A DNA stretch of 64,000 nt. Origin: an uncultured Porphyromonadaceae bacterium. GTDB taxonomy: Bacteria > Bacteroidota > Bacteroidia > Bacteroidales > UBA12481. The position numbers and the translations under genes were made by a program. Location: contig CAZJNQ010000001.1 of NCBI GenBank assembly GCA_964547475.1, positions 2,795 through 66,794 of the forward strand, read 5' to 3'. The notes under the pieces are model-generated. The model saw only the letters and a list, made by a program, of their open reading frames with translations, did not search any database and was not told the origin of the DNA. This document shows, in pieces, positions 230 to 14,736 of the stretch; position 1 is the stretch's first letter, and the number at the start of each line of letters is the position of its first letter.

Positions 230-478
230 ATGTGTTTATGCATCCCTGCACGCATCCTTTCGGTCGACGGTAGTTTTGCAACTGCTGAGGTCGGCGGCCT
301 GATCGTTAACACCGGCATCCATCTGATTGATGGGGTGAAAACGGGTGATTATGTGCTGATCCATTCAGGTTTTGCCATTCAGATCCTTTCTCCCGAGGAA
401 GCCGATGAAACTTTCAGTCTCCTGCGTGAGATTGAGAGCTATTCAGGAGAAGAACCGGTTAAAACCAATGAGCCATGA
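230..478 (+). CDS. hypC: Hydrogenase assembly chaperone HypC/HupF
   Basis: 82 aa with N-terminus MCLCIPARI (HypC Cys2 signature). Its stop overlaps the hypD start (ATGA at 475-478). Confidence 0.9.
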   Translation: MCLCIPARILSVDGSFATAEVGGLIVNTGIHLIDGVKTGDYVLIHSGFAIQILSPEEADETFSLLREIESYSGEEPVKTNEP

Positions 479-1527
479 ACAGGGTGGATGAACTGGTCGC
501 TATGATACGCCGCGAAAATCGGTCGCCTGTCAGGTTTATGGAAGTATGCGGTGGTCACACTCTGGCGATTAACCAATTGGGAATCAGAAGCCTTCTTCCC
601 GACAAGATCAATCTGTTGTCCGGTCCGGGGTGTCCGGTGTGTGTGACAGGAACCGGTTATATCGACTCCGCCTTGCGGATAGCGTCCAATCCGGAAGTGA
701 TACTCACTACTTTCGGAGACCTGATCCGGGTTCCCGGAAGTGAGGGTAGCCTCGAGACGGGGCGGGCATCCGGGATGGATGTCAGGTTGGTGCTGTCCCC
801 TCTGCACGCGCTTCAGATCGCCAGGCAGGAACCGGGCCGGCAGGTGGTATTCCTGGGCATTGGGTTTGAAACGACAGCACCCGGTGTCGCAGCAGTCATC
901 CGGATGGCACGATCTGAAAAAAGGGACAATTTCTTTGTGTTGAGCGCACATAAAGTAATGCCTCCCGCCATGGATGCACTCACTTCACGAGGGATCCGGC
1001 TGGATGGTTTCATATGTCCCGGTCATGTCAGCACCATAACGGGATCGGCCATCTATGAATCGCTGGCCCGGGACAGGCATATTCCCTGCGTGATATCCGG
1101 CTTCGAGGCTGCTGATATTCTCGAAACCATCCTTCTTTTGCTCCGGCAGGTGAATCAGGGTACGGCGTCCGTTGAGATACAGTACACGCGCGCTGTTAGG
1201 CCGGAAGGAAATCCCAGGGCATTGCAACTGATGGACGAGGTTTTTTACCGGCGAGATGACTGGTGGAGAGGCCTCGGGATCATTCCCGCAAGCGGTCTCG
1301 GAATCCGGGATGAGTTCCGCGCTCAGGATGCGGAGTACCTCTTCGGACGCGTTACCATGCAAGGAACCGAACCGGCAGGATGCGCCTGCGGTTCAGTGCT
1401 GACCGGCCAAATGACCCCATCCGAATGCGGGCTATTTGGTTCAGTATGCACTCCCGATTCTCCCGCCGGAGCCTGCATGGTTTCTTCAGAAGGAGCCTGC
1501 CAATCTTTTTTTCGCTTTTTACAATGA
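475..1527 (+). CDS. hypD: Hydrogenase formation Fe-S protein HypD
   Basis: 350 aa with GPGCPVCV, GFETTAP and CPGHVS motifs typical of HypD. Lies between hypC and hypE. Confidence 0.92.
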   Translation: MNRVDELVAMIRRENRSPVRFMEVCGGHTLAINQLGIRSLLPDKINLLSGPGCPVCVTGTGYIDSALRIASNPEVILTTFGDLIRVPGSEGSLETGRASGMDVRLVLSPLHALQIARQEPGRQVVFLGIGFETTAPGVAAVIRMARSEKRDNFFVLSAHKVMPPAMDALTSRGIRLDGFICPGHVSTITGSAIYESLARDRHIPCVISGFEAADILETILLLLRQVNQGTASVEIQYTRAVRPEGNPRALQLMDEVFYRRDDWWRGLGIIPASGLGIRDEFRAQDAEYLFGRVTMQGTEPAGCACGSVLTGQMTPSECGLFGSVCTPDSPAGACMVSSEGACQSFFRFLQ

Positions 1528-1540
1528 TACAAATATAACG

Positions 1541-2554
1541 ATGGGTACTTCGATTTTGCTGGCTCATGGCAGCGGCGGCGGGAAGACCCGGGAGCTCATC
1601 CGCTCTGTCTTCAGGCCCTTTTTCACGGACTCCCGCCTGATTGCCGCGACGGATTCGGCAATCCTGGATGGTGAAGCCGGACAACTGGCTTTCACCACCG
1701 ATGCATTTGTTGTGGATCCGATCTTTTTCCCTGGAGGGGACATCGGAAAACTGGCAGTCTGCGGCACTCTCAACGACCTGGCCGTGTCAGGTGCGAAGCC
1801 TCTCTGGATGGCCGTTTCATTCATCCTCGAGGAAGGCCTTGAACTTGAGGACCTTACAACCATCGCCCGCTCGATGGCGGCAACAGCCAATGCAAATAAT
1901 GTTGCGCTGGTCGCCGCCGATACCAAAGTGGTTCCCCGCGGCAAAGGAGACAAGGTGTTTATAACCACAACGGGCATCGGCCGCCTGTTGACCGGACTTG
2001 AACAGGTTTCTTCCGGTACCGGCATCAGGCCCGGGGACAAGGTTATCGTGAGCGGAACGGTTGGGGATCATGGTGCATCCATTTTCACTTCCCGGCTCGA
2101 ACAACCTCCGGCAACACCTGTCCTCAGCGACTGCGCTTCCGTTCTTCCCATAATGGGCGGTCTTTGCGACCTCGCTGAACATATCCGGTTTATGCGGGAT
2201 CCCACGCGCGGAGGGACCGCCACCGTGCTCTGTGAAATCACTGAGAAACAAAACTGGGGAATCCGCCTCATCGAACGGTCGATCCCCGTGGATGGCAAAG
2301 TCAGTGGCTTATGCCGGCTGGCGGGCCTCGACCCACTCTATCTGGCTTGCGAAGGCCGCGTAATCTGCATTGCCAGTCCTGAAAAGGGAGAAGAGGTCAT
2401 ACGCAGGATGAAAACCTGCCCTGCCGGCCTGAATGCCTGCGAAATCGGAACCATAACCAGTGAAAATCCGGGTCGGGTGGTCATGGAAACCACTATTGGC
2501 GGCACACGCCTGATTACGATGCTTTCCGGGGATCCGCTGCCCAGAATCTGCTGA
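1541..2554 (+). CDS. hypE: Hydrogenase expression/formation protein HypE
   Basis: I prefer the ATG at 1541 (MGTSILLAHGSGGG...) over the alternative start at 1436, which overlaps hypD. AIR-synthase-like sequence ending in the HypE C-terminal PRIC motif. Confidence 0.9.
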   Translation: MGTSILLAHGSGGGKTRELIRSVFRPFFTDSRLIAATDSAILDGEAGQLAFTTDAFVVDPIFFPGGDIGKLAVCGTLNDLAVSGAKPLWMAVSFILEEGLELEDLTTIARSMAATANANNVALVAADTKVVPRGKGDKVFITTTGIGRLLTGLEQVSSGTGIRPGDKVIVSGTVGDHGASIFTSRLEQPPATPVLSDCASVLPIMGGLCDLAEHIRFMRDPTRGGTATVLCEITEKQNWGIRLIERSIPVDGKVSGLCRLAGLDPLYLACEGRVICIASPEKGEEVIRRMKTCPAGLNACEIGTITSENPGRVVMETTIGGTRLITMLSGDPLPRIC

Positions 2555-2562
2555 CTTACAAC

Positions 2563-2904
2563 ATGCACGAACTTACATTCATAGAAAACATCCTGCGGGC
2601 CTGCACCGAGGCTTCCCAGCAGAACCATCTGAAGAAAGTCACCCGCATCAGCCTGGAGATCGGCAAGATGTACCAACTGGTACCGGACCTCCTACATTTC
2701 GCCTTTAAAACAGCTGTGACCGGGACCCTCTTCGAAGGTGCAACTCTTGATATCGAATGGAAATCTCTCACCGGGGAGTGCACAGGTTGCGGCCATTCTT
2801 TTACTATCGAGGAATTCGTTTTCATCTGCCCGGAATGCGGCAGTTTCAATATCAAGCTCGTATCAGGCAAAGAATTGTTAATTAAATCAATAGAAGGAAA
2901 CTAA
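2563..2904 (+). CDS. hypA: Hydrogenase nickel incorporation protein HypA
   Basis: 113 aa with an N-terminal MHE nickel motif and two CxxC pairs (CTGC, CPEC) forming the zinc site. Confidence 0.9.
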   Translation: MHELTFIENILRACTEASQQNHLKKVTRISLEIGKMYQLVPDLLHFAFKTAVTGTLFEGATLDIEWKSLTGECTGCGHSFTIEEFVFICPECGSFNIKLVSGKELLIKSIEGN

Positions 2905-2905
2905 C

Positions 2906-3544
2906 ATGGAAATCAAAATCATGAAGAATGTGCTGGACAGGAACCAGGACAAGGCCAATGATAACCGCAAGCTGTTATCGGACAAAGGAATAACAATGAT
3001 TAACCTGATCAGTGCTCCGGGTTCAGGCAAGACTTCCCTGCTCGAGAAGACGCTGGATCATTTCGGGAGCATGCGGAAGATCGGCATTATCGAAGGGGAC
3101 GTAGCCACCGATCATGACGCACGCAGGCTGGCCATCTTCCGGACTCCCGTGTTACAAATCAATACCGAAGGGGGTTGCCACCTCGATTCCCATTCGATAG
3201 ACAAGGCACTTCAAAACCTTGATCTTGGCAGCCTTGACCTGATTTTCGTGGAAAACGTCGGCAACCTGGTCTGTCCGGCAGCATTTGACCTGGGTGAGAA
3301 CCATAAGGTCGCTATCGTGAGCGTGCCCGAAGGAGATGACAAGCCTGTCAAATATCCTCTGTTGTTCAGGCAGGCATCGGCCATCATCCTCAATAAAACA
3401 GACCTGATACCCTACACCGATTTCAGGATGGACCGTTTCCGCAGTTATATCCGTGACCTCAATGGTTCAGTGCCCCTTTTTGAGATTTCCTGCTCAACCG
3501 GGAGTGGCCTGGAATACTGGTTCGAATGGGTGAAACAAGTATAA
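2906..3544 (+). CDS. hypB: Hydrogenase nickel incorporation GTPase HypB
   Basis: 212 aa with P-loop APGSGKTS, ENVGNLVCP and NKTDL motifs. No His-rich N-terminal stretch. Starts 1 nt after hypA. Confidence 0.9.
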   Translation: MEIKIMKNVLDRNQDKANDNRKLLSDKGITMINLISAPGSGKTSLLEKTLDHFGSMRKIGIIEGDVATDHDARRLAIFRTPVLQINTEGGCHLDSHSIDKALQNLDLGSLDLIFVENVGNLVCPAAFDLGENHKVAIVSVPEGDDKPVKYPLLFRQASAIILNKTDLIPYTDFRMDRFRSYIRDLNGSVPLFEISCSTGSGLEYWFEWVKQV

Positions 3545-3553
3545 AAGAAAAGA

Positions 3554-3575
3554 GGCAGCCTCGGGTGAGGCCGCC
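3554..3575. terminator. Bidirectional hairpin between convergent hypB and gdhA
   Basis: GGCAGCCTC / GGGT loop / GAGGCCGCC gives a 9-bp stem with one mismatch. On the minus strand it is followed by TCTTTTCTTTTAT. On the plus strand it is followed by the pyrimidine tract. Confidence 0.55.
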
Positions 3576-3614
3576 CCTTTCCCCTTTCTCCTTTTTCCTT
3601 TTTCCTTTTTCCTT
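3574..3614 (+). repeat. 41-nt uninterrupted homopyrimidine tract with 7-nt periodicity
   Basis: Read directly: CCCCTTT CCCCTTT CTCCTTT TTCCTTT TTCCTTT TTCCTT. It lies 30 nt after the hypB stop and abuts the gdhA stop (3616). Confidence 0.9.
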
Positions 3615-3615
3615 A

Positions 3616-5004
<1,389 letters not shown>

Positions 5005-5094: not shown

Positions 5095-8091
5095 TTAGCC
5101 ATTGACTTCGGCCATTTTCGGCTTGTAAATGACCCCTTTGTTGCGGACCCCGTCAATTTTAATCGTCAGGGGTTCCGGAAACCGGATATGCCGGATGTAT
5201 TCATCTTCCGAAACACATTCCAACCGGTTCAGGAAATCAATATCATAAAATCCGTCGTTTAGGAACGGATTAATGGTCAGATATCCAACGCGGAAAGAAG
5301 TAAGGTTCTGGAAAAAGTGGGTGCCCTGGCTGGGATCAATGCGGTAATCGGGCAAGCCCGATTCGACTATTAGCCGGGCGGCCGAAATCTGGGCCCATTT
5401 AACCGGGATCCCGAGCCACGGATCGCTCGAACCCCACCGGCCCGGGCCAACCAGTACATAATTCTCTCCCGAAGCCACAAACTGGTCATTGAGCTTTTCC
5501 ACTCTCCTGGCAATGGTTAGGCTGTCGGCAGCCCGGAAACATTCGGGCTTGACATAAACAAAATCCCTGATCCCGCGAATCAGCCCATTGCCGAGCGCTG
5601 ATCGCGAAAAAATCAGCGCTTCGTTTATATTAACCTCCTCCAGCTTGAAGTTCAAGGTATCCGTATTTTCCACAACAGGCCTGATCTGAAGGAAATTAAA
5701 GATCTTCGGCGTGCCGGGAGGCGTATCCAGGTTGACGGCAAACTCCATCTCGATCGGATTGTTCATCTCCTTTTCCCCGACCTTCATCAGTGTGTACAGG
5801 ACATCAGCCAGCGGAAAGGTATTATGCTTCAGTATATTGTTGAAAGTCACGATTTTCTTCCCTGCTGCGGTGAACTGGTCGCGGATGATGTGATTATTCA
5901 TGTCATAAACGGAGGCAACATGCCTTAACGCAGTATCTCCTTCAGCTTCCTTGATCTTAAGCTTGAACAGGTTGACGCCATCATTGGTGGATGGAACGAA
6001 ATGATCCGCCACCAGGTCAAGGGCATAAAACTCCCTTTGGGTCTCGCGCAGCGCACTCTCAGCGGTTGAAAGCTGCAACACCTTGTTCGGGTACCTGGGT
6101 GAGAAACGAAGACCGGTTCCGCCCTCTACGATCAGCCTGCCAAGCCCGTAAGCAATGTTGGCAATGCCGTCTTCCGGCTTTTCCTGCCCGATCGGATAGA
6201 AATTTATGGACCTGGCGACACCTGACAGGGTCGGGTAAAAACGTTCGCCATAACGACTGCCGCACACTTCCTGGAGGATGATGGCCATCCGTTCGGCATC
6301 AATGACATTCTGGGTTGCCGCGAGGTAAGTTTTTGAGCTTTTATAATAGACCGATGCATAAACTGCCTTGATCGCATCGGCAATCATGTAGATCATCCTT
6401 TGTTTATCGGTGTCGGCCGTCGGCAGCATAAAAGTCGAATAGACACCGGCAAAAGGCTGGTAATGACTATCCTCCAGCATACTGGAGGATCGAACGGCAA
6501 TCGGGTTCCTGACCACCCGGATAAAGGTCTCCAAATCCTTGTAGATCCTGACCGGCAGGGTGGCATTCACGAAGCTTTGAAGGATCTGCTCGTCGGTGAG
6601 CCGGGAAGTTGCCACTTTCCAAAGATTGTTCAGGTCCATGAACTCCTCGAAAACCTCGGTTGAGATTACGACGGTCCTGGGAATGGCTACGTGGATCCCT
6701 TCCCACCGGCTTCCCAGTTCATAATGCTTGATGAAGGAATCTATGAAAGCCAATCCCCTGGCTTTGCCTCCGAGCGATCCTTCACCAATCCTGGAAAAAA
6801 GCATATACTCATCAAACCGTGTCCGGTCGAAGGTGGAAATCACCCCCCGGGCTTTCGACAGACGATAGCTGGCAATGATGTTGAAAATGTACTGGCGGCC
6901 GATCTCCACGCTCCCGAAATCATCGAGCGTTTTGTATTTCAAGTGGGATCCGATCTGAAAGAATGCCCTGGCATTGAACCATTTGGAAAAGTCATTGTTT
7001 TTAAAATGATACTGCAGGGACTGAGCCGGGATCTTCAGGATGATATCCTGCATCTCCTTCAGGTTGGATGCTCTTCCGATCTCTTCACGGGTGGCAGGAT
7101 CCCTGAAAATGAAATCACCGAAATTCATGTACCGGAGCATGAAATTCCTGAGTTCGATTTCCAGCGTCTTGGAGTACTTATGCAGGAAACTGGCATTGAG
7201 TTCGGTTGCCGGTGCCTGGTTTGACAACTCCGAGGATTGCAGGAGAAAAGGCACGTAAGGATCCACTTTCCGGACCGCCTGGCAGAATTTCAGGCCGGCC
7301 TCCTGGTCTTTTTTCCCTTCCCTGATATAGGAGATGTCGGAAATAATTCCGAGTGTGCTGTCCTTGTATTGGTTGAAGAGGTGATTGGCCTGTTCATAAT
7401 TGGTGGCCAGAAGGATTTTCGGCCGGCCGCGCATCCTTAGCATCTTGCGGTGCTCGTTAAGGCCTTCCTGCATGAAGGACTTGCTTTGCTTGAAGACGAT
7501 TTTGTAAATGGCAGGAAGAAATGAGGAATAATAACGAATGGAGTCCTCCACCAGGAGGATGACCTGGACGCCCACTTCATGAACATCGTATTTCAGGTTC
7601 ATCTTGTCCTCTATCAGCTTGATGATGGCCAGGAGAAGATCGGCATTACCCAGCCACGAGAACACGTAATCAATGGCACTTAGGTCTTCTTTTTCCAGCT
7701 TGATCGATACTTCCCGGCTGAAATGCGTGAGCACCACGATGGGAATATGGGGATACTCGCTCTTGATCTTTTTTGACAGCCCGAAGGCATCCATCTCTCC
7801 AACGCTAAGCATGGAAATGACCAGGTCAATGTGTTCCTTTTCAAGGTACTCGAAAGCCTTCCGCGCCGTGTTGGCCTGGATGAAAACGGGAGGATACCGG
7901 AGGTTCAGTGAAACATATTCATTGTATATCTGTTCATCTATCCTTCCGTCCTCCTCCAGCATAAAGAAATCATAGTTGCTGCAGATGATCAGTACTCTAT
8001 TTATCCTCCTCTGCATCAGCAACTTAAATTCGGCTTCGCCGAAGTCCATGTTTTGCTGGTCAACCGTGACTATTTCATTCATTGAAGTCAT
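5095..8091 (-). CDS. Receiver-domain protein with PEP-synthase/PPDK_N-type ATP-grasp domain, paralog A (998 aa); function unknown
   Basis: Degenerate receiver at aa 31-165. Canonical receiver with LLVEDS, D252 in LGIISDIS, LLQSS and K305. ATP-grasp landmarks GSLGGKARGLAFI, IAVRSSSMLEDS, PFAG, MAIILQE and EMEFAV...LQIRP. I saw no GGxTSHAAI swivel-His motif. Confidence 0.75.
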   Translation of the reverse strand: MTSMNEIVTVDQQNMDFGEAEFKLLMQRRINRVLIICSNYDFFMLEEDGRIDEQIYNEYVSLNLRYPPVFIQANTARKAFEYLEKEHIDLVISMLSVGEMDAFGLSKKIKSEYPHIPIVVLTHFSREVSIKLEKEDLSAIDYVFSWLGNADLLLAIIKLIEDKMNLKYDVHEVGVQVILLVEDSIRYYSSFLPAIYKIVFKQSKSFMQEGLNEHRKMLRMRGRPKILLATNYEQANHLFNQYKDSTLGIISDISYIREGKKDQEAGLKFCQAVRKVDPYVPFLLQSSELSNQAPATELNASFLHKYSKTLEIELRNFMLRYMNFGDFIFRDPATREEIGRASNLKEMQDIILKIPAQSLQYHFKNNDFSKWFNARAFFQIGSHLKYKTLDDFGSVEIGRQYIFNIIASYRLSKARGVISTFDRTRFDEYMLFSRIGEGSLGGKARGLAFIDSFIKHYELGSRWEGIHVAIPRTVVISTEVFEEFMDLNNLWKVATSRLTDEQILQSFVNATLPVRIYKDLETFIRVVRNPIAVRSSSMLEDSHYQPFAGVYSTFMLPTADTDKQRMIYMIADAIKAVYASVYYKSSKTYLAATQNVIDAERMAIILQEVCGSRYGERFYPTLSGVARSINFYPIGQEKPEDGIANIAYGLGRLIVEGGTGLRFSPRYPNKVLQLSTAESALRETQREFYALDLVADHFVPSTNDGVNLFKLKIKEAEGDTALRHVASVYDMNNHIIRDQFTAAGKKIVTFNNILKHNTFPLADVLYTLMKVGEKEMNNPIEMEFAVNLDTPPGTPKIFNFLQIRPVVENTDTLNFKLEEVNINEALIFSRSALGNGLIRGIRDFVYVKPECFRAADSLTIARRVEKLNDQFVASGENYVLVGPGRWGSSDPWLGIPVKWAQISAARLIVESGLPDYRIDPSQGTHFFQNLTSFRVGYLTINPFLNDGFYDIDFLNRLECVSEDEYIRHIRFPEPLTIKIDGVRNKGVIYKPKMAEVNG

Positions 8092-11000
8092 TTATAACCG
8101 GGTATGCCGGGGAATCCTGGCCTTCCTCATCATTTCCGAGGCGGATCAGGGACTGTCTCTTTTTACCGTCCATAACTATATCCAGGTCCCTCTCAAACCT
8201 GACGTGCCGGAAGTACTGTCCCTCCTCCACCAGAACCTGCTGATTCAAAAGATCATAGTGAATAAAGTTCTTTCCGCCCGAATGAACCGAAAGATAACCC
8301 ACATTCATGGAGGTCACATTGTGGAAAAAATGAGATCCCATGGATGCTTCAAGCGGAAAATCAGCCAGATCGGTTTCCACAATGATGCGTGCTCCGGAGA
8401 TCTGGGACCATTTTACGGGTATTCCGATAAACTTGTCGCGGCTGCCCCATCTTCCGGGTCCGATCAGAACATATTCCTTCCTGGATCTGACCATTCTCTT
8501 GTTGAAATACTCGATCTCGGCAGCCATCTCAACCGTTTTCAGTTTGTCGAACCGGGCAGGGTCGAGGTAAACCACATCCCGGAGATACCGGATTCTCCCG
8601 TTACCGAGGCTTCTTTCTGCATAGAGCATGATATGATCCCGCTTGACGCTGTCAATGTCGACCGTATAATCTTCATCCGAGCCGACCATAGGCTTGATCT
8701 GCAAAAGGTAAAAAGATGACTTCATGCCGGCATCCGGGACCAGGTCTACCGCATATTCTATTTCAACAGCTGTCCCCAGCGCTTCATGCACTACATCGAG
8801 AATCACTTGTATGGTCTTTGCGAGTGGAATGTGATCAAACTGAAGGATATTGGCGAAATTGAGCACGCGTGGCCCACCGGTTGAGAGTCCCGGTTCAAAA
8901 CGGTCGTTATCCGGATCATAGACTGAAGCCAGGTGTTTTAGGGTGCCATGGGACTCGGCCAGGGAAACCTCCAACCTGGCCAGGCCTGCTTCTTCTCCCT
9001 CAAACAGGTCGATCTTATCCTTTCCGAGATCAGCGGCATAAAAATCCACCTGCGATGTTTTTAACTGGTCCTTGAGGGAGGTGACCTGTAAGGTCGGGTA
9101 TTTTGGCGAAAAACGCCAGGCTTTTTCACCTTCAACAACATATCTGCCCAAACCCAGGGCGACCACGGCACAACCGTCATCCGGCTCCATGTGCGCTACG
9201 GGATAGTAATTGTAAGATTGGGCCGTGCCGCTGATGTGTGGATAATAATACCGGTCAAATTGGTTTCCCACCAACTCCTGAATGATCACGGCCATCTTCT
9301 CCTCTTCAATCTTGTAATTCACCGCATCGAAGTACATCCTCGCCTCGGGAGAAAAGATGGATGCATAAACCATCTTGATCGCATCCTGAAGCTGGTTGAA
9401 ACGGGTATTGAAATCAGGATCCGAATTAGGCAGCACATAGGTCTCAAAAATCCCGGCAAAAGGATAAAGCAGAGAATCTTCAAAAATACTTGAGGAGCGC
9501 ACCGCCAGGGGACGGTTCAACAACTGCATGAAGGTCTTGAGTTTCTTCCGAAGGTTGAAGGAAAGTTCGCCATCCATGAACAACTTTCGGATCTCGCCAT
9601 AGTCCTCCATTTCCATTACCCTGGTGATCAGGTTATTGCGTTGCATGAAAATTTCAAACTCATCGGTTCCGATGATAGCGGTTCTCGGGGTCCGGATGTT
9701 AATGTCGGGAATGATCTGGGTGAAATCCAGATTATTGATAAGGGTATTGATAAAAGCCAGTCCCCTTCCTTTACCACCGAGGGATCCCGTACCCAAACTG
9801 ACTATGTTGCGCCAGTCAAGGACGGCCGATTCATCGAAATTGACCACTTTCCCCCTGTCCTTGTCAATCCGGTAATTTTGAATAACATCAATAATATATT
9901 CCCTGAGGTCCTTGGGGCTGCTGAAATCGGTAGCCTTGATCGGATTGATGATCTTGGCCAGATGAATTTCACCGCGGGCCATCAGCCAAAGGGAGAAGTG
10001 GTTCTTGAGGGCATGGTAGAGGATGGACTCTTCCGGTATGGTTCGGAGATGGTCTTCGAAATCTTTCATCGAACGGGCCACTGCGATCTTACGGCCCATA
10101 GTATCCCGGTAAACAAAATGGCCGAAGCCCAGGGAATAGGTGATGAAAGTCTTGAGGTCCTGCAGCAGTGTCTCGGAATTCTTGTTCATGAAAGTGGCCT
10201 TCAGTTTGACCGCGGAAGCGGCGAACTGGGCATCGGACGACTGCAGGATCATTGGGATTTCCTGCCTGTGGTCATGGACATACCGCAGGAAACTGATCCC
10301 TGCGGTTTCATCTGTGAGGCCGCTTCTCTTGAATTTGACGTCCGAAATGACACAAGCCAGGTAATCCTGGTATTTATTGAAATAACTCAGCGCTTCCTCA
10401 TAGCTCGTAGCCAGCACTATTTTAGTACGGGCTCTCATCCTGCTTATCTTGTCCTGCTCATTGGTGTTGGCTTCGGCGATCAGTTCCTGTGTCTGTTCGA
10501 ACACCAGTGTATAGAGCATCGGAAGATACCGGGAATAGTACCTCGGTGAATCTTCGACCAGCAAGACGACCCTGACCAGGCCGACCCGGGTATCGTTCTC
10601 GAGGTTGACTTCGTCTTCCAGGAGCTTGACCATGGTAAAGAATATCTTGGAATCTCCATTCCAGACAAACATCCTGTCGATCGACGGCAGGTAAACCTGG
10701 TCATCGTCAAACAAGCCGATCTTGGAACTGTTGTTCAGAAGGAGGAAGATTTTTATTTCCGGATAACGGCGGCGTATTCTTTCAGCCAGCCTCAGCGGAC
10801 TTCGCGTATCCACGCCTACCATCAGGACAACAAAATCATAGTTTTTTTCCTTCAGCAGCTCCAAGGCGTCATCAGCTGATGTGGCACCGGTTATCCTGGG
10901 CAGTGAAGACAGGCTCAGGTGGTAAACCTCCCCCATCGCCTGTTCAAAGAACCGGTCCTCGTTTTCCAGGATGAACGTGTCATAAAGGGTAGCGACCAGC

Positions 11001-11590
11001 AGGATCTCCGAAACCTTGTACTTCATCAGGTCATGGAAGATATTCTTATCCGCCGCCTGCTTGCTGAGAAATTGCTGGAGCAGAAGGCGGCTGTCCTTCA
11101 TCGATTCGGTATAGATGATCCTCTTGAATTTATAATCTTCCCGTTCGCGGGGTGGCGTTACTATCACTGCCTTACCCATGAGCCCGTTAAGGTAGCCGGT
11201 GATCAGGCCGGCAATATTCTGGATCAGATCTCTTTCCTCATTCAGGAAAGGGCCTTCATCCGCATCCGGCATCTTCTGCACATAGAAAACCTCAACAACA
11301 CCTGCTTTTCCATCGGCAGTCGTGAATTCCTTCTGTTGCAGCCATTCCGTCCGTTTGAACCTCAGGCTCAGGAATTCCTCGCCGTCATAAGCGATCCGTG
11401 CACAGGCTTTCTGAGGATATTGCCATCCCCTGGGAAGGATCAAGGCTATCTGTCGGAGGGTTTCCGGGAGAGGCTTTCCTTCCGATATAATTGAGTTGGT
11501 ACGGTTGATGGTCGTGAGCTCCTTGACGCGCTCGGTATGTTCCGCAACCAGCCGCTCAAGATCGGGATGTCTGTTCCGCTTTTCTGCCAT
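8075..11590 (-). CDS. Receiver-domain protein with PEP-synthase/PPDK_N-type ATP-grasp domain, paralog B (1171 aa, extra N-terminal sensor-like module); function unknown
   Basis: Same architecture as paralog A: LLVEDS, D417 in ACVISDVKF, ILQSS, K470, GSLGGKGRGLAFI, LAVRSSSIFEDS and EIEYAV...LQIKP. It has about 140 additional N-terminal residues. Its stop (8075-8077) lies inside the first codons of paralog A. Confidence 0.75.
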   Translation of the reverse strand: MAEKRNRHPDLERLVAEHTERVKELTTINRTNSIISEGKPLPETLRQIALILPRGWQYPQKACARIAYDGEEFLSLRFKRTEWLQQKEFTTADGKAGVVEVFYVQKMPDADEGPFLNEERDLIQNIAGLITGYLNGLMGKAVIVTPPREREDYKFKRIIYTESMKDSRLLLQQFLSKQAADKNIFHDLMKYKVSEILLVATLYDTFILENEDRFFEQAMGEVYHLSLSSLPRITGATSADDALELLKEKNYDFVVLMVGVDTRSPLRLAERIRRRYPEIKIFLLLNNSSKIGLFDDDQVYLPSIDRMFVWNGDSKIFFTMVKLLEDEVNLENDTRVGLVRVVLLVEDSPRYYSRYLPMLYTLVFEQTQELIAEANTNEQDKISRMRARTKIVLATSYEEALSYFNKYQDYLACVISDVKFKRSGLTDETAGISFLRYVHDHRQEIPMILQSSDAQFAASAVKLKATFMNKNSETLLQDLKTFITYSLGFGHFVYRDTMGRKIAVARSMKDFEDHLRTIPEESILYHALKNHFSLWLMARGEIHLAKIINPIKATDFSSPKDLREYIIDVIQNYRIDKDRGKVVNFDESAVLDWRNIVSLGTGSLGGKGRGLAFINTLINNLDFTQIIPDINIRTPRTAIIGTDEFEIFMQRNNLITRVMEMEDYGEIRKLFMDGELSFNLRKKLKTFMQLLNRPLAVRSSSIFEDSLLYPFAGIFETYVLPNSDPDFNTRFNQLQDAIKMVYASIFSPEARMYFDAVNYKIEEEKMAVIIQELVGNQFDRYYYPHISGTAQSYNYYPVAHMEPDDGCAVVALGLGRYVVEGEKAWRFSPKYPTLQVTSLKDQLKTSQVDFYAADLGKDKIDLFEGEEAGLARLEVSLAESHGTLKHLASVYDPDNDRFEPGLSTGGPRVLNFANILQFDHIPLAKTIQVILDVVHEALGTAVEIEYAVDLVPDAGMKSSFYLLQIKPMVGSDEDYTVDIDSVKRDHIMLYAERSLGNGRIRYLRDVVYLDPARFDKLKTVEMAAEIEYFNKRMVRSRKEYVLIGPGRWGSRDKFIGIPVKWSQISGARIIVETDLADFPLEASMGSHFFHNVTSMNVGYLSVHSGGKNFIHYDLLNQQVLVEEGQYFRHVRFERDLDIVMDGKKRQSLIRLGNDEEGQDSPAYPVINDFNE

Positions 11591-11698: not shown

Positions 11699-12712
11699 TT
11701 ATACTTCCCAGGTGGCACCGGAATGCAGCAGGTCCCTGACCGTCTTGATCTCGCTCCGGCTCCTAACGGCGTCGATCTGATCCTCCAACTTCCTTTCATA
11801 AGCCGCCTGCAGGTTGCACGAACGGATCACACCCATGGCCACCGGGTATTTCGGGTAGTCCATAGTGGCCAGCATAAGGTGAATACCGGCAAATTCGGTT
11901 TGTGTATCATGGACCAGGACATCCTTTTCGGAGTAACCGCCTTCTCCCAATTGCACGACCTGCAGTTGGTTATCTTTAAGGATCAGGCCCTTATCCTGAT
12001 TTTTTCCGAAGATCATGGGTTCCCTGTGCTTCAGCAGGATGATCCGGTCATCACGGTTTTCACGGTCGGTAATGTCAGCCCAGGTATTATCGTTGAAAAT
12101 CACGCAGTTCTGCATCACTTCAACAATGGATGCTCCGATATGCTTTGCCGCCTCCAGCAGGATCTCGGTGGACATTTTGGGCATGGAATCAATCGTCCGG
12201 GCAAAGAAGCTCCCTCCCGCGCCGATGGTGATTCCTCCTGGTTTAAAAGGCCTTTCCACGGTCCCATAGGGTGATGTCTTTGACAACGCTCCATGAATGG
12301 AGGTCGGAGAGTATTGGCCTTTCGTCAGTCCGTAAATCCGGTTATTGAACAGGATCAGGTTCACATCAATATCCCGCCTGATCAGGTGCATGAAATGATT
12401 GCCGCCAATAGCCAGGGAGTCCCCGTCACCGGTGATTATCCAGACGCTCAAGGCAGGATTGGCCACCTTGACTCCGCTGGCGATTGCCATGGCTCGTCCG
12501 TGAATCCCGTGGACGCCATAGGTATTGACATAATAGGGAAACCTGGAGGAGCAGCCGATCCCGGAAATGAAAACCACGTCTTCGTGTTTGTACCCGATCT
12601 GGGGAAGGGCTTTCAACGTTGCGCTCAGGATGGCATGGTCACCACAGCCGGCACACCAGCGAACCATCTGGTCGCTCTTAAAATCTTCAGGTTGTAATTG
12701 TTTGACATCCAT
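11699..12712 (-). CDS. korB: 2-oxoacid:ferredoxin oxidoreductase beta subunit (2-oxoglutarate type, KorB-like)
   Basis: 337 aa with an N-terminal WCAGCGDH motif and the TPP-binding motif ITGDGDSLAIGGNHF. Starts 3 nt after the alpha subunit. Confidence 0.85.
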   Translation of the reverse strand: MDVKQLQPEDFKSDQMVRWCAGCGDHAILSATLKALPQIGYKHEDVVFISGIGCSSRFPYYVNTYGVHGIHGRAMAIASGVKVANPALSVWIITGDGDSLAIGGNHFMHLIRRDIDVNLILFNNRIYGLTKGQYSPTSIHGALSKTSPYGTVERPFKPGGITIGAGGSFFARTIDSMPKMSTEILLEAAKHIGASIVEVMQNCVIFNDNTWADITDRENRDDRIILLKHREPMIFGKNQDKGLILKDNQLQVVQLGEGGYSEKDVLVHDTQTEFAGIHLMLATMDYPKYPVAMGVIRSCNLQAAYERKLEDQIDAVRSRSEIKTVRDLLHSGATWEV

Positions 12713-12715
12713 GGC

Positions 12716-14560
12716 TCAGTCCTCCAGGTTTTTAAGTATAACTTCTGTCAGGTCCCTGACAGTGAACGGCAGTCCCATGATCTTATTAAACTGCCGGTAG
12801 GAATATTCGGGCAGCTTCATCCTCAGGAAACTGGCAAACTGGCCCAGATTGATCTCGCAAACCAGTCTCTTTTTAAACCGGGACATTATATCCCCGGTAT
12901 TGAGCGGAAGCGGGTTGATATAGTTGAAATGGGCCAGGGCCAGTTTGTGTCCCTCCCCGCGGATCTCGTTCAGGGCGCTCAGCAGATGCCCGTAGGTACC
13001 TCCCCAGCCCATGAGAAGGAGATCGGCATCCGGATCCCCGATTATTTCCAGGGGTGGAATATCCAGAGCCACTTTTTGAATCTTGGCATCCCGGATATGA
13101 GTCATGAGCTCGTGATTTTCTGGTACATAAGAAACGTTACCGGTCCGATCCGCTTTTTCCAGACTGCCCACCCGGTGCTCAAAGCCCGGAGTACCCGGGA
13201 TTGCCCAAGTCCGGACCAGAGTCTCAGGATCCCGGACATAGGGCAGCCAGTTTTCGGGAGATTCCTTGGGCCTTGGAACTTTTATGGCCGGAAATTCGTC
13301 AGGATCCGGGATTTTCCAGGGCTCCGAACCGTTGGCCAGAAAACCGTCCGTCATGAGGATGACCGGGGTCATGTGCTCAATTGAGATTTTGGAAGCCTGA
13401 TAGGCAAAATCAAAACAATTGGAAGGGGTGGAAGCAGCCAGCACAACCACAGGGCTTTCCCCGTTTCTGCCGAAGAGAGCCTGCATCAGGTCTGATTGTT
13501 CCGTTTTAGTCGGCAGCCCCGTGGATGGGCCTCCCCTCTGAACGTCAACCACCACCAGTGGCAACTCGGTCATGACCGCCAGGCCGATAGCTTCTCCTTT
13601 CAAAGCCAGTCCGGGCCCTGAGGTGGTTGTTGCAGCCAGGCACCCTGCATAACTAGCTCCAATGGCCGTGCAGATACCCGCTATTTCGTCTTCGGCCTGA
13701 AAAGTCTTGACCTTCAGATCCTTTCTGGAAGCCAATTCCTCCAGGATACCGGTCGCCGGAGTGATCGGGTAAGATCCGACAAATAAACCCAGGCCCGCAT
13801 TCTCTGCCGCAGCCATTAAGCCCCAGGCCACTGCGGTGTTGCCATTGATGTTGCGGTACGTTCCCTTTTCAATTTCAGCCGGCTTGACCCTGAAATGGCT
13901 GGTGAAAGCCTCGATGGTCTCGGCATAGTAGTACCCATCATAGAGTGCCTTGGTATTGGCTTCAACCAGGAGAGGCTTTTTACTGAATTTCTTGTTGAAA
14001 AAACTGACAGCATGTTCCAGGGGACGGTCGAAAAGCCAGCTTACTATACCCAGGGCAAACATGTTTTTGCAACGCATGATCGATTTCTGGTCCAGGCCTG
14101 TGTCCTTCAGGCTTTCGCGCGTGAGGGACGAAATCGGGGCTGAAATCACCTGGATGGCGCCCATTTTCTCCTCTTCAAAAGGGTTAACCTTATATCCGGC
14201 TTTGAGAATATTTTTCTCGTCGAATGCATCGATATCATAAATGATGATCCCGTCGGATTTGACCCACCTGAAATTGGCTTTCAGGGCTGCCGGGTTCATC
14301 GCCACCAGAACATCGCAAAAATCCCCGGGTGTATTGATCTGGGCATGACCGAAATGAACCTGAAAACCCGACACACCTGCCACGGTTCCCTGAGGAGCCC
14401 TGATCTCGGCCGGATAATCAGGGAACGTGGATACATCGTTCCCGAAAACAGCCGATGAATCAGAAAATAGGGTCCCGGTCAGCTGCATCCCGTCCCCGGA
14501 ATCCCCCGAAAACCGGATGGCCACCTCCTCTATTTCCACAACCTTAACCTGTTTACTCAT
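12716..14560 (-). CDS. korA: 2-oxoacid:ferredoxin oxidoreductase alpha subunit (KorA-like, fused alpha/gamma)
   Basis: Begins MSKQVKVVEIEEVAIRFSGDSGDGMQ. I prefer the ATG at 14560. The ORF-track start at 14593 is a TTG that adds 11 aa. Substrate specificity cannot be read from sequence. Confidence 0.85.
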   Translation of the reverse strand: MSKQVKVVEIEEVAIRFSGDSGDGMQLTGTLFSDSSAVFGNDVSTFPDYPAEIRAPQGTVAGVSGFQVHFGHAQINTPGDFCDVLVAMNPAALKANFRWVKSDGIIIYDIDAFDEKNILKAGYKVNPFEEEKMGAIQVISAPISSLTRESLKDTGLDQKSIMRCKNMFALGIVSWLFDRPLEHAVSFFNKKFSKKPLLVEANTKALYDGYYYAETIEAFTSHFRVKPAEIEKGTYRNINGNTAVAWGLMAAAENAGLGLFVGSYPITPATGILEELASRKDLKVKTFQAEDEIAGICTAIGASYAGCLAATTTSGPGLALKGEAIGLAVMTELPLVVVDVQRGGPSTGLPTKTEQSDLMQALFGRNGESPVVVLAASTPSNCFDFAYQASKISIEHMTPVILMTDGFLANGSEPWKIPDPDEFPAIKVPRPKESPENWLPYVRDPETLVRTWAIPGTPGFEHRVGSLEKADRTGNVSYVPENHELMTHIRDAKIQKVALDIPPLEIIGDPDADLLLMGWGGTYGHLLSALNEIRGEGHKLALAHFNYINPLPLNTGDIMSRFKKRLVCEINLGQFASFLRMKLPEYSYRQFNKIMGLPFTVRDLTEVILKNLED

Positions 14561-14736
14561 ATCGGATTGGATATTTAGTTTTTCTGACAGCAAAGTAAAC
14601 AGATTTCAGACTTGAAGAAAATGATTATTGCTTGTGTATTCTTGAAAGAGAGAAAAAATCAAAAATCAAAGGATGGCGATAATTAAACCGGTCAGGGGAT
14701 TTACACCCGTCATAGGGAACAACTTTAATAGAAAGT

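Follow-up and report, generated by a model that had tools for sequence, protein, structure and literature searches.

We analyzed a 64,000-nucleotide stretch of DNA from an uncultured Porphyromonadaceae bacterium (GenBank assembly GCA_964547475.1, contig CAZJNQ010000001.1, positions 2,795 to 66,794 of the forward strand; hereafter the window, in whose own numbering all coordinates are given). Two adjacent genes in the window, paralogs A and B, encode proteins in which a dikinase-type ATP-grasp domain is followed by an unnamed C-terminal module of about 190 amino acids with an invariant histidine. We give about an even chance to the reading that A and B represent a new branch within the PPDK/PEPS/RPH superfamily and that this module is its phosphoryl-handling histidine domain, whether carrying or catalytic. 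The PPDK_N superfamily itself is known; what is new here is that a dikinase-type enzyme carries an unannotated histidine domain of a non-canonical kind.

A widespread domain with an invariant histidine

Paralog A (5095–8091, minus strand; 998 amino acids, from the open reading frame list and its translation) has the domain order probable pseudo-receiver, receiver-like domain, DUF5752-like linker, PPDK_N ATP-grasp and C-terminal module. Its database twin, P0121, is 100% identical and starts three codons downstream (995 amino acids). Paralog B (8075–11590, minus strand; 1171 amino acids) has the architecture of A plus about 160 extra N-terminal residues. It is the gene immediately upstream of A and is read in the same direction; the end of B and the start of A overlap (8075–8091).

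The original prediction, made from the sequence of the window alone, held that both paralogs run past their ATP-grasps into a shared module with two conserved blocks, and translation bore this out. The ATP-grasp ends in LQIRP in A (residues 801–805) and in LQIKP in B (residues 963–967). The module of A, which begins one residue past LQIRP, occupies 5098–5676 on the minus strand, and this predicted interval corresponds exactly to residues 806–998; that of B comprises residues 968–1171 (8078–8689, minus strand), for a module length of 193–205 amino acids in the two proteins. The two blocks are YVLVGPGRWGSSDPWLGIPVKWAQISAARLIVE (residues 878–910) and PSQGTHFFQNLTSFRVGYLTI (residues 920–940) in A, and their equivalents in B are residues 1040–1072 and 1082–1102. 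A and B were 37% identical over 969 amino acids, with 38% identity in the ATP-grasp, 41% in the module and 56% in its core (residues 876–945 of A). The similarity between their modules is far beyond chance.

Conservation was assessed in a clade-1 alignment, which held 155 module copies from the 150 best cluster representatives, and in a merged alignment of 276 copies to which a second, distant clade had been added. The histidine of the motif S-x-G-[ST]-H-F-F is position 120 of the module, or His925 of A (codon 5317–5319, minus strand) and His1087 of B (codon 8330–8332, minus strand), both checked by translation. It was invariant in 155/155 clade-1 copies and in 276/276 copies across the two deep clades, and the conservation of G-[ST]-H-F-F noticed in the two paralogs extended to these copies. 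Arg80, Gly89 and Gly118 (module numbering) were also present in all 276 copies, and Glu105 and Ser116 each in 275. A G-P-G-R-W-G-S loop follows the strand YVLVGP (residues 882–888 of A; 5428–5448, minus strand) and was nearly fixed: its arginine, which is Arg80, occurred in 276/276 copies, its tryptophan in 274/276, and each glycine position in 273–275 of the 276. Among clade-1 copies, position 119, just before the histidine, was Ser or Thr in 145/155 and position 83 was Ser or Thr in 155/155. Within the catalytic half, no histidine other than His120 was invariant, as judged from 32 full-length relatives and the merged alignment.

The module was also said to be no named domain, and our searches agreed. 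It gave no Pfam match at E ≤ 10 in A, B or 30 relatives, no NCBIfam match at E ≤ 1, and no match to any PDB sequence in single-sequence or profile searches; no known domain with an unrelated role was recovered. PADLOC, which was used to check for membership of a defense system, had no match for A or B. Relatives of the module itself were abundant. A word-indexed search found 2636 of them, and an exhaustive hidden Markov model (HMM) search with a 9-sequence module profile against 1.84 billion cluster representatives found 2241 homologous clusters at E ≤ 1e-3, 599 of them at E ≤ 1e-30 (clusters counted at 50% identity). We concluded that the module is a real, widespread domain.

Fragments aside, the relatives showed three architectures: proteins of ~990–1000 amino acids with receivers, ATP-grasp and module; proteins of ~580 amino acids with ATP-grasp and module only; and proteins of ~1500–1650 amino acids with two units of ATP-grasp plus module (P0242, P0255, P0277). 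The second unit of these long proteins carries a diverged module that is ~24% identical to that of A, with homology over its full length (HHalign probability 99.95%). Carriers included many Bacteroidales, Flavobacteriales (Gillisia limnaea, Lutibacter), species of Bacteroides and Parabacteroides, and metagenome-assembled genomes labeled Chlorobiota and Victivallales. We rejected ‘stand-alone’ modules of 180–330 amino acids as a separate architecture, since these came from contig ends or from genes interrupted by frameshifts. Genes of the family were broken into 2–4 open reading frames on several ENA/NCBI contigs of great length (L162, which is contig_4462, and L167–L170); assembly frameshift errors on such long-read contigs are the most likely cause, and the most likely source of the spurious stand-alone proteins.

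An intact ATP-grasp of the dikinase superfamily

The PPDK_N-type ATP-grasp covers residues 439–805 of A (5677–6777, minus strand) and residues 603–967 of B (8690–9784, minus strand). Pfam PPDK_N (PF01326) matched A at 439–811 (138 bits, E 5.7e-40) and B at 603–973 (123 bits), both above the cut-off of 27 bits. Read against PpsA, the domain is intact: the lysine of GGK, the arginine of VRSS (VRSSS in A), the glutamate and the Q-x-R-P motif of dikinase ATP-grasps (E...Q-I-R-P in A) are retained. Foldseek searches with a two-domain model (described below) matched RPH (E 6e-11), HpeI (9goj, match no. 5, E 6e-9) and PPDK, at probability 1.00. A and B belong to the PPDK_N dikinase superfamily. In B, LQIKP (8690–8704, minus strand) replaces the LQ[ICV]RP of A and most relatives, so that Lys stands for the Arg of Q-x-R-P; from this substitution, the paralogs could be catalytically non-equivalent.

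NCBIfam models matched the ATP-grasp only, and far below threshold: ‘PEP synthase’ PRK06241, PigC and RedH. Equivalog models for phosphoenolpyruvate (PEP) synthase scored 22–54 bits against cut-offs of 598–883 (the best 53–54 against 883), and TIGR01418 scored 22–34 bits against 740. The pyruvate-binding barrel PEP-utilizers_C (PF02896) was absent from A and B by Pfam. Given these sub-threshold scores and the missing barrel, the database name ‘phosphoenolpyruvate synthase’ is unjustified. A tblastn search of the window for a canonical gene of PPDK or PEPS found none.

In the literature consulted, characterized enzymes with this ATP-grasp work through a phospho-histidine, handing on the beta-phosphate of ATP by way of a histidine on a mobile domain. 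In RPH this is His825 (PMC4844700). VadK, made up of nothing but an ATP-grasp and a histidine domain, phosphorylates itself on His422 and has metabolic enzymes among its interaction partners (PMC13400623). HpeH/HpeI is a two-component dikinase with a separate histidine subunit (PMC12167813).

Relation to the canonical phosphohistidine domain

The module had been placed where canonical family members carry their phosphohistidine domain, and this was correct: it stands directly after PPDK_N, where E. coli PpsA (PPDK_N 22–349) has the PEP-utilizers domain PF00391, a swivel domain, at 386–457. As in PpsA, it adjoins the ATP-grasp on a predicted flexible linker. Both domains are beta-rich, have one invariant histidine after a hydroxyl residue ([ST]-H in the module, T-S-H in the canonical domain, G-G-x-T-S-H in PDB swivel domains) and end in ...D-G-x-x-G-x-[VI]. 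By eye, further likenesses to PpsA could be drawn between G-N-G-x-I-x-G-I and G-x-G-x-V-x-V-I, and between I-V-E-[ST]...G-[ST]-H and I-V-T-[NDE]-x-G-G-x-T-[SC]-H, and near the C-terminus between I-x-I-D-G-x4-G-V-I and the swivel-domain V-T-V-D-G-x2-G-x-V-Y. The order of elements is likewise similar by eye: an N-terminal beta-meander, three strands split by loops or short helices with the histidine loop after the second, and C-terminal strands. The differences are also plain. A swivel domain has ~75–115 amino acids, whereas the module has ~190; the module contains a long inserted helix (module positions 49–69) and, in place of G-G-x-T-S, a 13-residue loop before the histidine; and it has the extra invariant G-P-G-R-W-G-S, Asp and Glu, with no PEP/pyruvate barrel after it.

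Several results weigh against a phosphohistidine carrier. PF00391 did not match A, B or the 30 relatives in Pfam at E ≤ 10 (positive controls: E. coli PpsA, 102 bits; PtsI, 85 bits). Canonical HMMs were made from PpsA and PtsI of E. coli, from 78 metagenomic PpsA domains and from five swivel domains of the PDB, and they scored the 155 modules no better than shuffled or reversed controls. When hhalign compared the module with a profile of swivel domains from PpsA, archaeal PEPS, the pyruvate kinase C-terminal domain, RPH and EI, the probability was 0.25–0.9%, below 1% in every setting, and the sole local match, ‘LGIP’, lay in a register that differs from our manual alignment. The module is ~70 residues longer than a swivel domain, and its invariant Arg, Asp and Glu would be superfluous in a simple carrier. 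Foldseek of the module alone against the PDB gave nothing below E 0.03, entries for PPDK, EI and PEPS were missing from the first 50 hits, and the helix after the histidine was poorly predicted in the two-domain model.

The manual alignment (YVLVGP / RLIVES / G-T-H helix / GYLTIN / IKIDG..GVI) treats the module as a diverged PF00391, but we do not claim homology, as hhalign, HMMER and Pfam were all null. That is, kinship with PF00391 has no support from any sequence or profile test and is only hinted at on the level of the fold. The module may be either a very remote homolog of the swivel domain or an independent invention. The proposal that its histidine is a non-canonical phospho-acceptor or part of a catalytic or substrate-binding site kept partial support, from position, invariance and the lack of an unrelated domain match, whereas similarity to the canonical phosphohistidine domain was undetectable.

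We modeled the module alone with AlphaFold2 from a 30-sequence alignment, and made a second model of the two domains together (A 430–998). The module-only model was a compact beta/alpha domain with a predicted local distance difference test (pLDDT) of 88 and a predicted template-modeling score of 0.86. Its elements are a four-strand N-terminal meander (20–42), the long helix (49–69), a strand (73–78) leading into the G-R-W-G-S loop, a strand (100–106) ending at the invariant Glu, the 13-residue loop with S-x-G-[ST], a helix (120–127) opening at the invariant histidine, a strand (131–136) and four C-terminal strands. In the two-domain model, pLDDT fell below 50 in the linker (residues 379–383 in the numbering of that model) and in a stretch beside the histidine, as would be expected of mobile elements.

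A Foldseek search with the module, which the original prediction had proposed as a check, gave no significant PDB match; against BFVD there was no match. The best neighbors were LD-carboxypeptidases (E 0.03–0.04, template-modeling score 0.32–0.34), whose C-terminal domain is itself placed by SCOP among the swivelling beta/beta/alpha folds. Results with the two-domain model differed. Its alignments to seven PPDK entries spanned 653–674 columns, and those to RPH and HpeI, which have no histidine domain right after the ATP-grasp, spanned 373–421. Because the PPDK alignments are the longer, they probably extend in these models beyond the ATP-grasp and across the module.

Receiver-like domains and gene pairs

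The first receiver-like domain of A (residues 22–170; ~7582–8028, minus strand) fell just short of Pfam Response_reg (PF00072), with 30.0 bits at residues 72–145 of A and 28.8 bits at 229–284 of B against a cut-off of 30.2. By eye, Met occupies the expected phospho-acceptor Asp position (DLVISM), and the domain is probably a pseudo-receiver. The second (~175–320; 7132–7569, minus strand) had no Pfam match. It has an acidic pair (LLVEDS), an Asp (GIISD), Ser and Lys, and in the 32 full-length relatives the corresponding E-D, D, S-S and K were nearly invariant. Because of this conservation, a histidine kinase probably controls activity by phosphorylating this domain. In the segment that joins the second receiver-like domain to the ATP-grasp, Pfam found DUF5752 in B (residues 505–576; ~9860–10080, minus strand; 26 bits against a cut-off of 23) and a sub-threshold match in A (residues 340–373); the literature that we searched held no mention of DUF5752. 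The extra N-terminus of B (residues 1–160; 11110–11590, minus strand; LxxINRTNSIISEG...GWQYP...DEGPFLNEERDLI) is without counterpart in A and looks like a sensory domain found N-terminally in some sensor kinases.

We compared 79 species-representative Bacteroidota loci and seven loci of the distant clade (listed as L083–L161, L163 and L165–L170). A B-like gene (1156–1276 amino acids where complete) stood directly before an A-like gene (~995 amino acids) in 20 of the 79, and the two ends usually overlapped or abutted, as at the B/A junction of the window (examples are L083, L084 and L092–L096). Because such pairs recur, and two units are fused in distant relatives, the functional unit may be a pair, with a two-unit enzyme as the rule.

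Linkage to glutamate dehydrogenase

A gene for glutamate dehydrogenase (GDH) lies 144 nucleotides downstream of A (3616–4950, minus strand; Pfam ELFV_dehydrog; NCBIfam PRK14030 at 831 bits, cut-off 743). No terminator was predicted on the minus strand in the interval between A and gdh, and a strong terminator-like hairpin with a 20-bp stem and a T tract follows gdh (3543–3586, minus strand). Across the Bacteroidota loci, a GDH gene was found within ~8 kb in 32/79, mostly as the immediate neighbor of the family gene, and flanked it on both sides in six; L168 has three gdh genes around the family gene. All 7 loci of the distant double-unit clade, which lie on unrelated contigs, also had a GDH gene, adjacent or one small gene away; in at least five of them it stood directly upstream in the same orientation. 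Because the linkage is consistent across clades with ~24% module identity, it argues for a functional tie of the family to GDH or 2-oxoglutarate. In its simplest form, GDH would be the target of phosphoryl transfer. The linkage suggests that the family may be a GDH-directed regulatory dikinase.

In the distant clade (clade 2), a Pol-beta-type nucleotidyltransferase (PF01909/PF18765) followed right after the second module in one of the three long proteins scanned (P0277, residues 1531–1597). The same domain occurred in many clade-2 fragments (P0391–P0510), whose names point to Ignavibacteria, Acidobacteria, Zixibacteria, Gemmatimonadota, Marinimicrobia and Syntrophomonadaceae. This nucleotidyltransferase part weakly matched the PADLOC candidate PDC-S09.

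Other genes flank the pair. Directly upstream of B is a two-gene 2-oxoacid:ferredoxin oxidoreductase (11699–14593, minus strand; POR_N/POR and TPP_enzyme_C), which like GDH handles a 2-oxoacid, putatively 2-oxoglutarate if it is of the Kor type; such genes were upstream in 12–14 of the 79 related loci. Just past gdh (475–3544, plus strand) lie genes for the hydrogenase maturation protein HypD, a HypE-like AIRS protein and a HypB/CobW GTPase.

Discussion

The view that His925 carries a phosphoryl group is favored because it is the sole candidate histidine, occupies the canonical place after a flexible linker and is preceded by a hydroxyl residue. If so, the PPDK_N ATP-grasp would bind ATP, and the module, on its flexible linker of ~18 residues, would dock onto it. 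His925 (His1087 in B) would attack the beta-phosphate, giving AMP and a pyrophosphoryl-histidine and then a phospho-histidine. The latter could be stabilized by Ser116, the Ser/Thr at position 119 and the backbone of Gly118, and by the helix N-terminus too if the module-only model is right. The phosphoryl group would finally be handed to an acceptor, with the N-terminal receiver domain gating activity. Because a PEP/pyruvate barrel and a RIF-type acceptor domain are both absent, the acceptor site might be formed by the module's own invariant Arg80, Asp85 and Glu105 or lie on a partner protein; GDH would be the leading candidate because of its conserved gene linkage. The extra invariant Arg, Asp and Glu, together with the missing barrel or RIF-type domain, are also why the module may form a second active site for the transfer. 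To judge from their conservation, Arg80, Asp85 and Glu105 would fit a catalytic or substrate site as well as a pure carrier.

The main rival, tentative and in our view somewhat unlikely, builds on these same residues. The module would be an acceptor-binding or second catalytic domain, a functional stand-in for PEP-utilizers_C or the RIF-binding domain; His925 would serve as general acid/base or substrate ligand with Arg80, Asp85, Glu105 and Ser116; and the ATP-grasp would phosphorylate a bound substrate directly or via a carrier in trans. The set of invariant polar residues (R80, D85, E105, S116, H120, N63, Y132) is indeed more active-site-like than carrier-like, the module has no PF00391 similarity, and its weak Foldseek neighbors are alpha/beta hydrolase- or phosphatase-like, including LD-carboxypeptidases with Ser-His-Glu. 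HpeH/HpeI provides a precedent for a separate histidine subunit (PMC12167813). However, we saw no separate PEP-utilizers gene beside A/B or in the clade-2 loci, and no characterized PPDK_N enzyme is known to bypass the histidine intermediate. The module is the only remaining domain for that histidine, and it has a single invariant one in an [ST]-H context.

Linkage to the genes for GDH and 2-oxoacid:ferredoxin oxidoreductase could instead mean metabolite sensing, and the paired units, whether translationally coupled as A and B or fused, suggest interaction between units. The module would then be a non-catalytic dimerization, regulatory or ligand-sensing domain (for example for 2-oxoglutarate, glutamate or a nucleotide) with the histidine as a ligand contact. 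We consider this improbable, because sensory and regulatory domains are already present (the receivers and the extra N-terminus of B), PPDK_N would be left without a phospho-acceptor, and a sensor pocket alone would not usually be so invariant across phyla (four residues in 276/276). Very improbable, finally, is a strongly diverged swivel domain in another register (G-P-G-R-W-G-S...L-G-I-P-V for G-G-R-T-C-H...L-G-I-P-A-V), in which the ancestral catalytic histidine became Ser/Thr83, always Ser or Thr in clade 1, and His120 has a different role in an added C-terminal subdomain: the register follows the only local hhalign match, LGIP(V)/LGIP(A), joined at relaxed settings by GPGRWGS/RGGRTCH, but the probability below 1% and the E-value of 0.06–0.07 for a single pairwise comparison are compatible with chance, the helix following the canonical histidine would have to be deleted, and the invariance of H120 would be left unexplained.

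Returning to the reading of the module as a phosphoryl-handling histidine domain, the nearest known systems are alike in part. RPH and the PRK06241/PigC/RedH group gave the best structural (E 6e-11) and NCBIfam matches of the ATP-grasp, and in the RPH group the histidine domain is also at the extreme C-terminus. In contrast to A and B, RPH has a 430-amino-acid substrate-binding domain between ATP-grasp and histidine domain, and that histidine domain is a canonical PF00391; A and B score 40–55 bits against NCBIfam cut-offs of 883–1350 and hence are non-members of the group. HpeI, a stand-alone PPDK_N ATP-grasp, shows the modularity of the superfamily, but its histidine domain is a separate canonical subunit, HpeH, whereas in A and B the module is non-canonical and fused to the ATP-grasp. 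VadK (Rv1127c of Mycobacterium tuberculosis), a dikinase derivative pared down to ATP-grasp and histidine domain, acts as a regulator (PMC13400623). Among the known systems it would be the closest functional parallel to a regulatory dikinase linked to GDH, although it keeps a recognizable PPDK central domain and lacks receiver domains; we compared it by its ATP-grasp only.

Covalent regulators of central nitrogen and carbon enzymes include GlnE, the glutamine synthetase adenylyltransferase, and AceK, which is encoded beside genes of its target pathway. GlnE resembles the clade-2 relatives, by analogy only, in having a Pol-beta-type nucleotidyltransferase domain. With these examples in mind, modification of GDH by the present family can be put forward as a hypothesis; the parallel is one of function, and no sequence relationship is claimed. 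We found no characterized member of the family and, in the literature searched, no paper on it; its NCBI name occurs there only for unrelated organisms.

With a smaller probability, the domain and a GDH-linked role could together be new in kind. We think it rather unlikely, yet worth stating, that the module defines a class of phosphohistidine or catalytic domains of its own and that the family is an unrecognized system for covalent control of GDH. GDH would be phosphorylated by it and, in clade 2, perhaps nucleotidylated as well. In Bacteroidota the system would take the form of A/B pairs gated by receivers, and in other phyla that of two units fused into one protein with a nucleotidyltransferase. 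Reports exist of post-translational control of GDH in Bacteroides, and to our knowledge its mechanism has never been explained. According to an old report, GDH activity in Bacteroides depends on trans-acting genes beside gdhA. Control of GDH by the present family, if true, would offer a molecular basis for that observation.

The family is abundant in gut and environmental Bacteroidota, where it is routinely misnamed ‘phosphoenolpyruvate synthase’. If His925 is a phospho-carrier, a large branch of dikinases, at least 2241 clusters at 50% identity, has a carrier domain that every domain library has missed, and the known sequence space of phosphohistidine chemistry would be wider. The linkage to GDH, a by-product of the analysis and perhaps weightier than the module itself, hints at a regulator of nitrogen metabolism. 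This coupling, seen in several phyla and in two clades that diverged deeply, yields a testable hypothesis, namely that a receiver-controlled dikinase regulates the entry of ammonia into metabolism.

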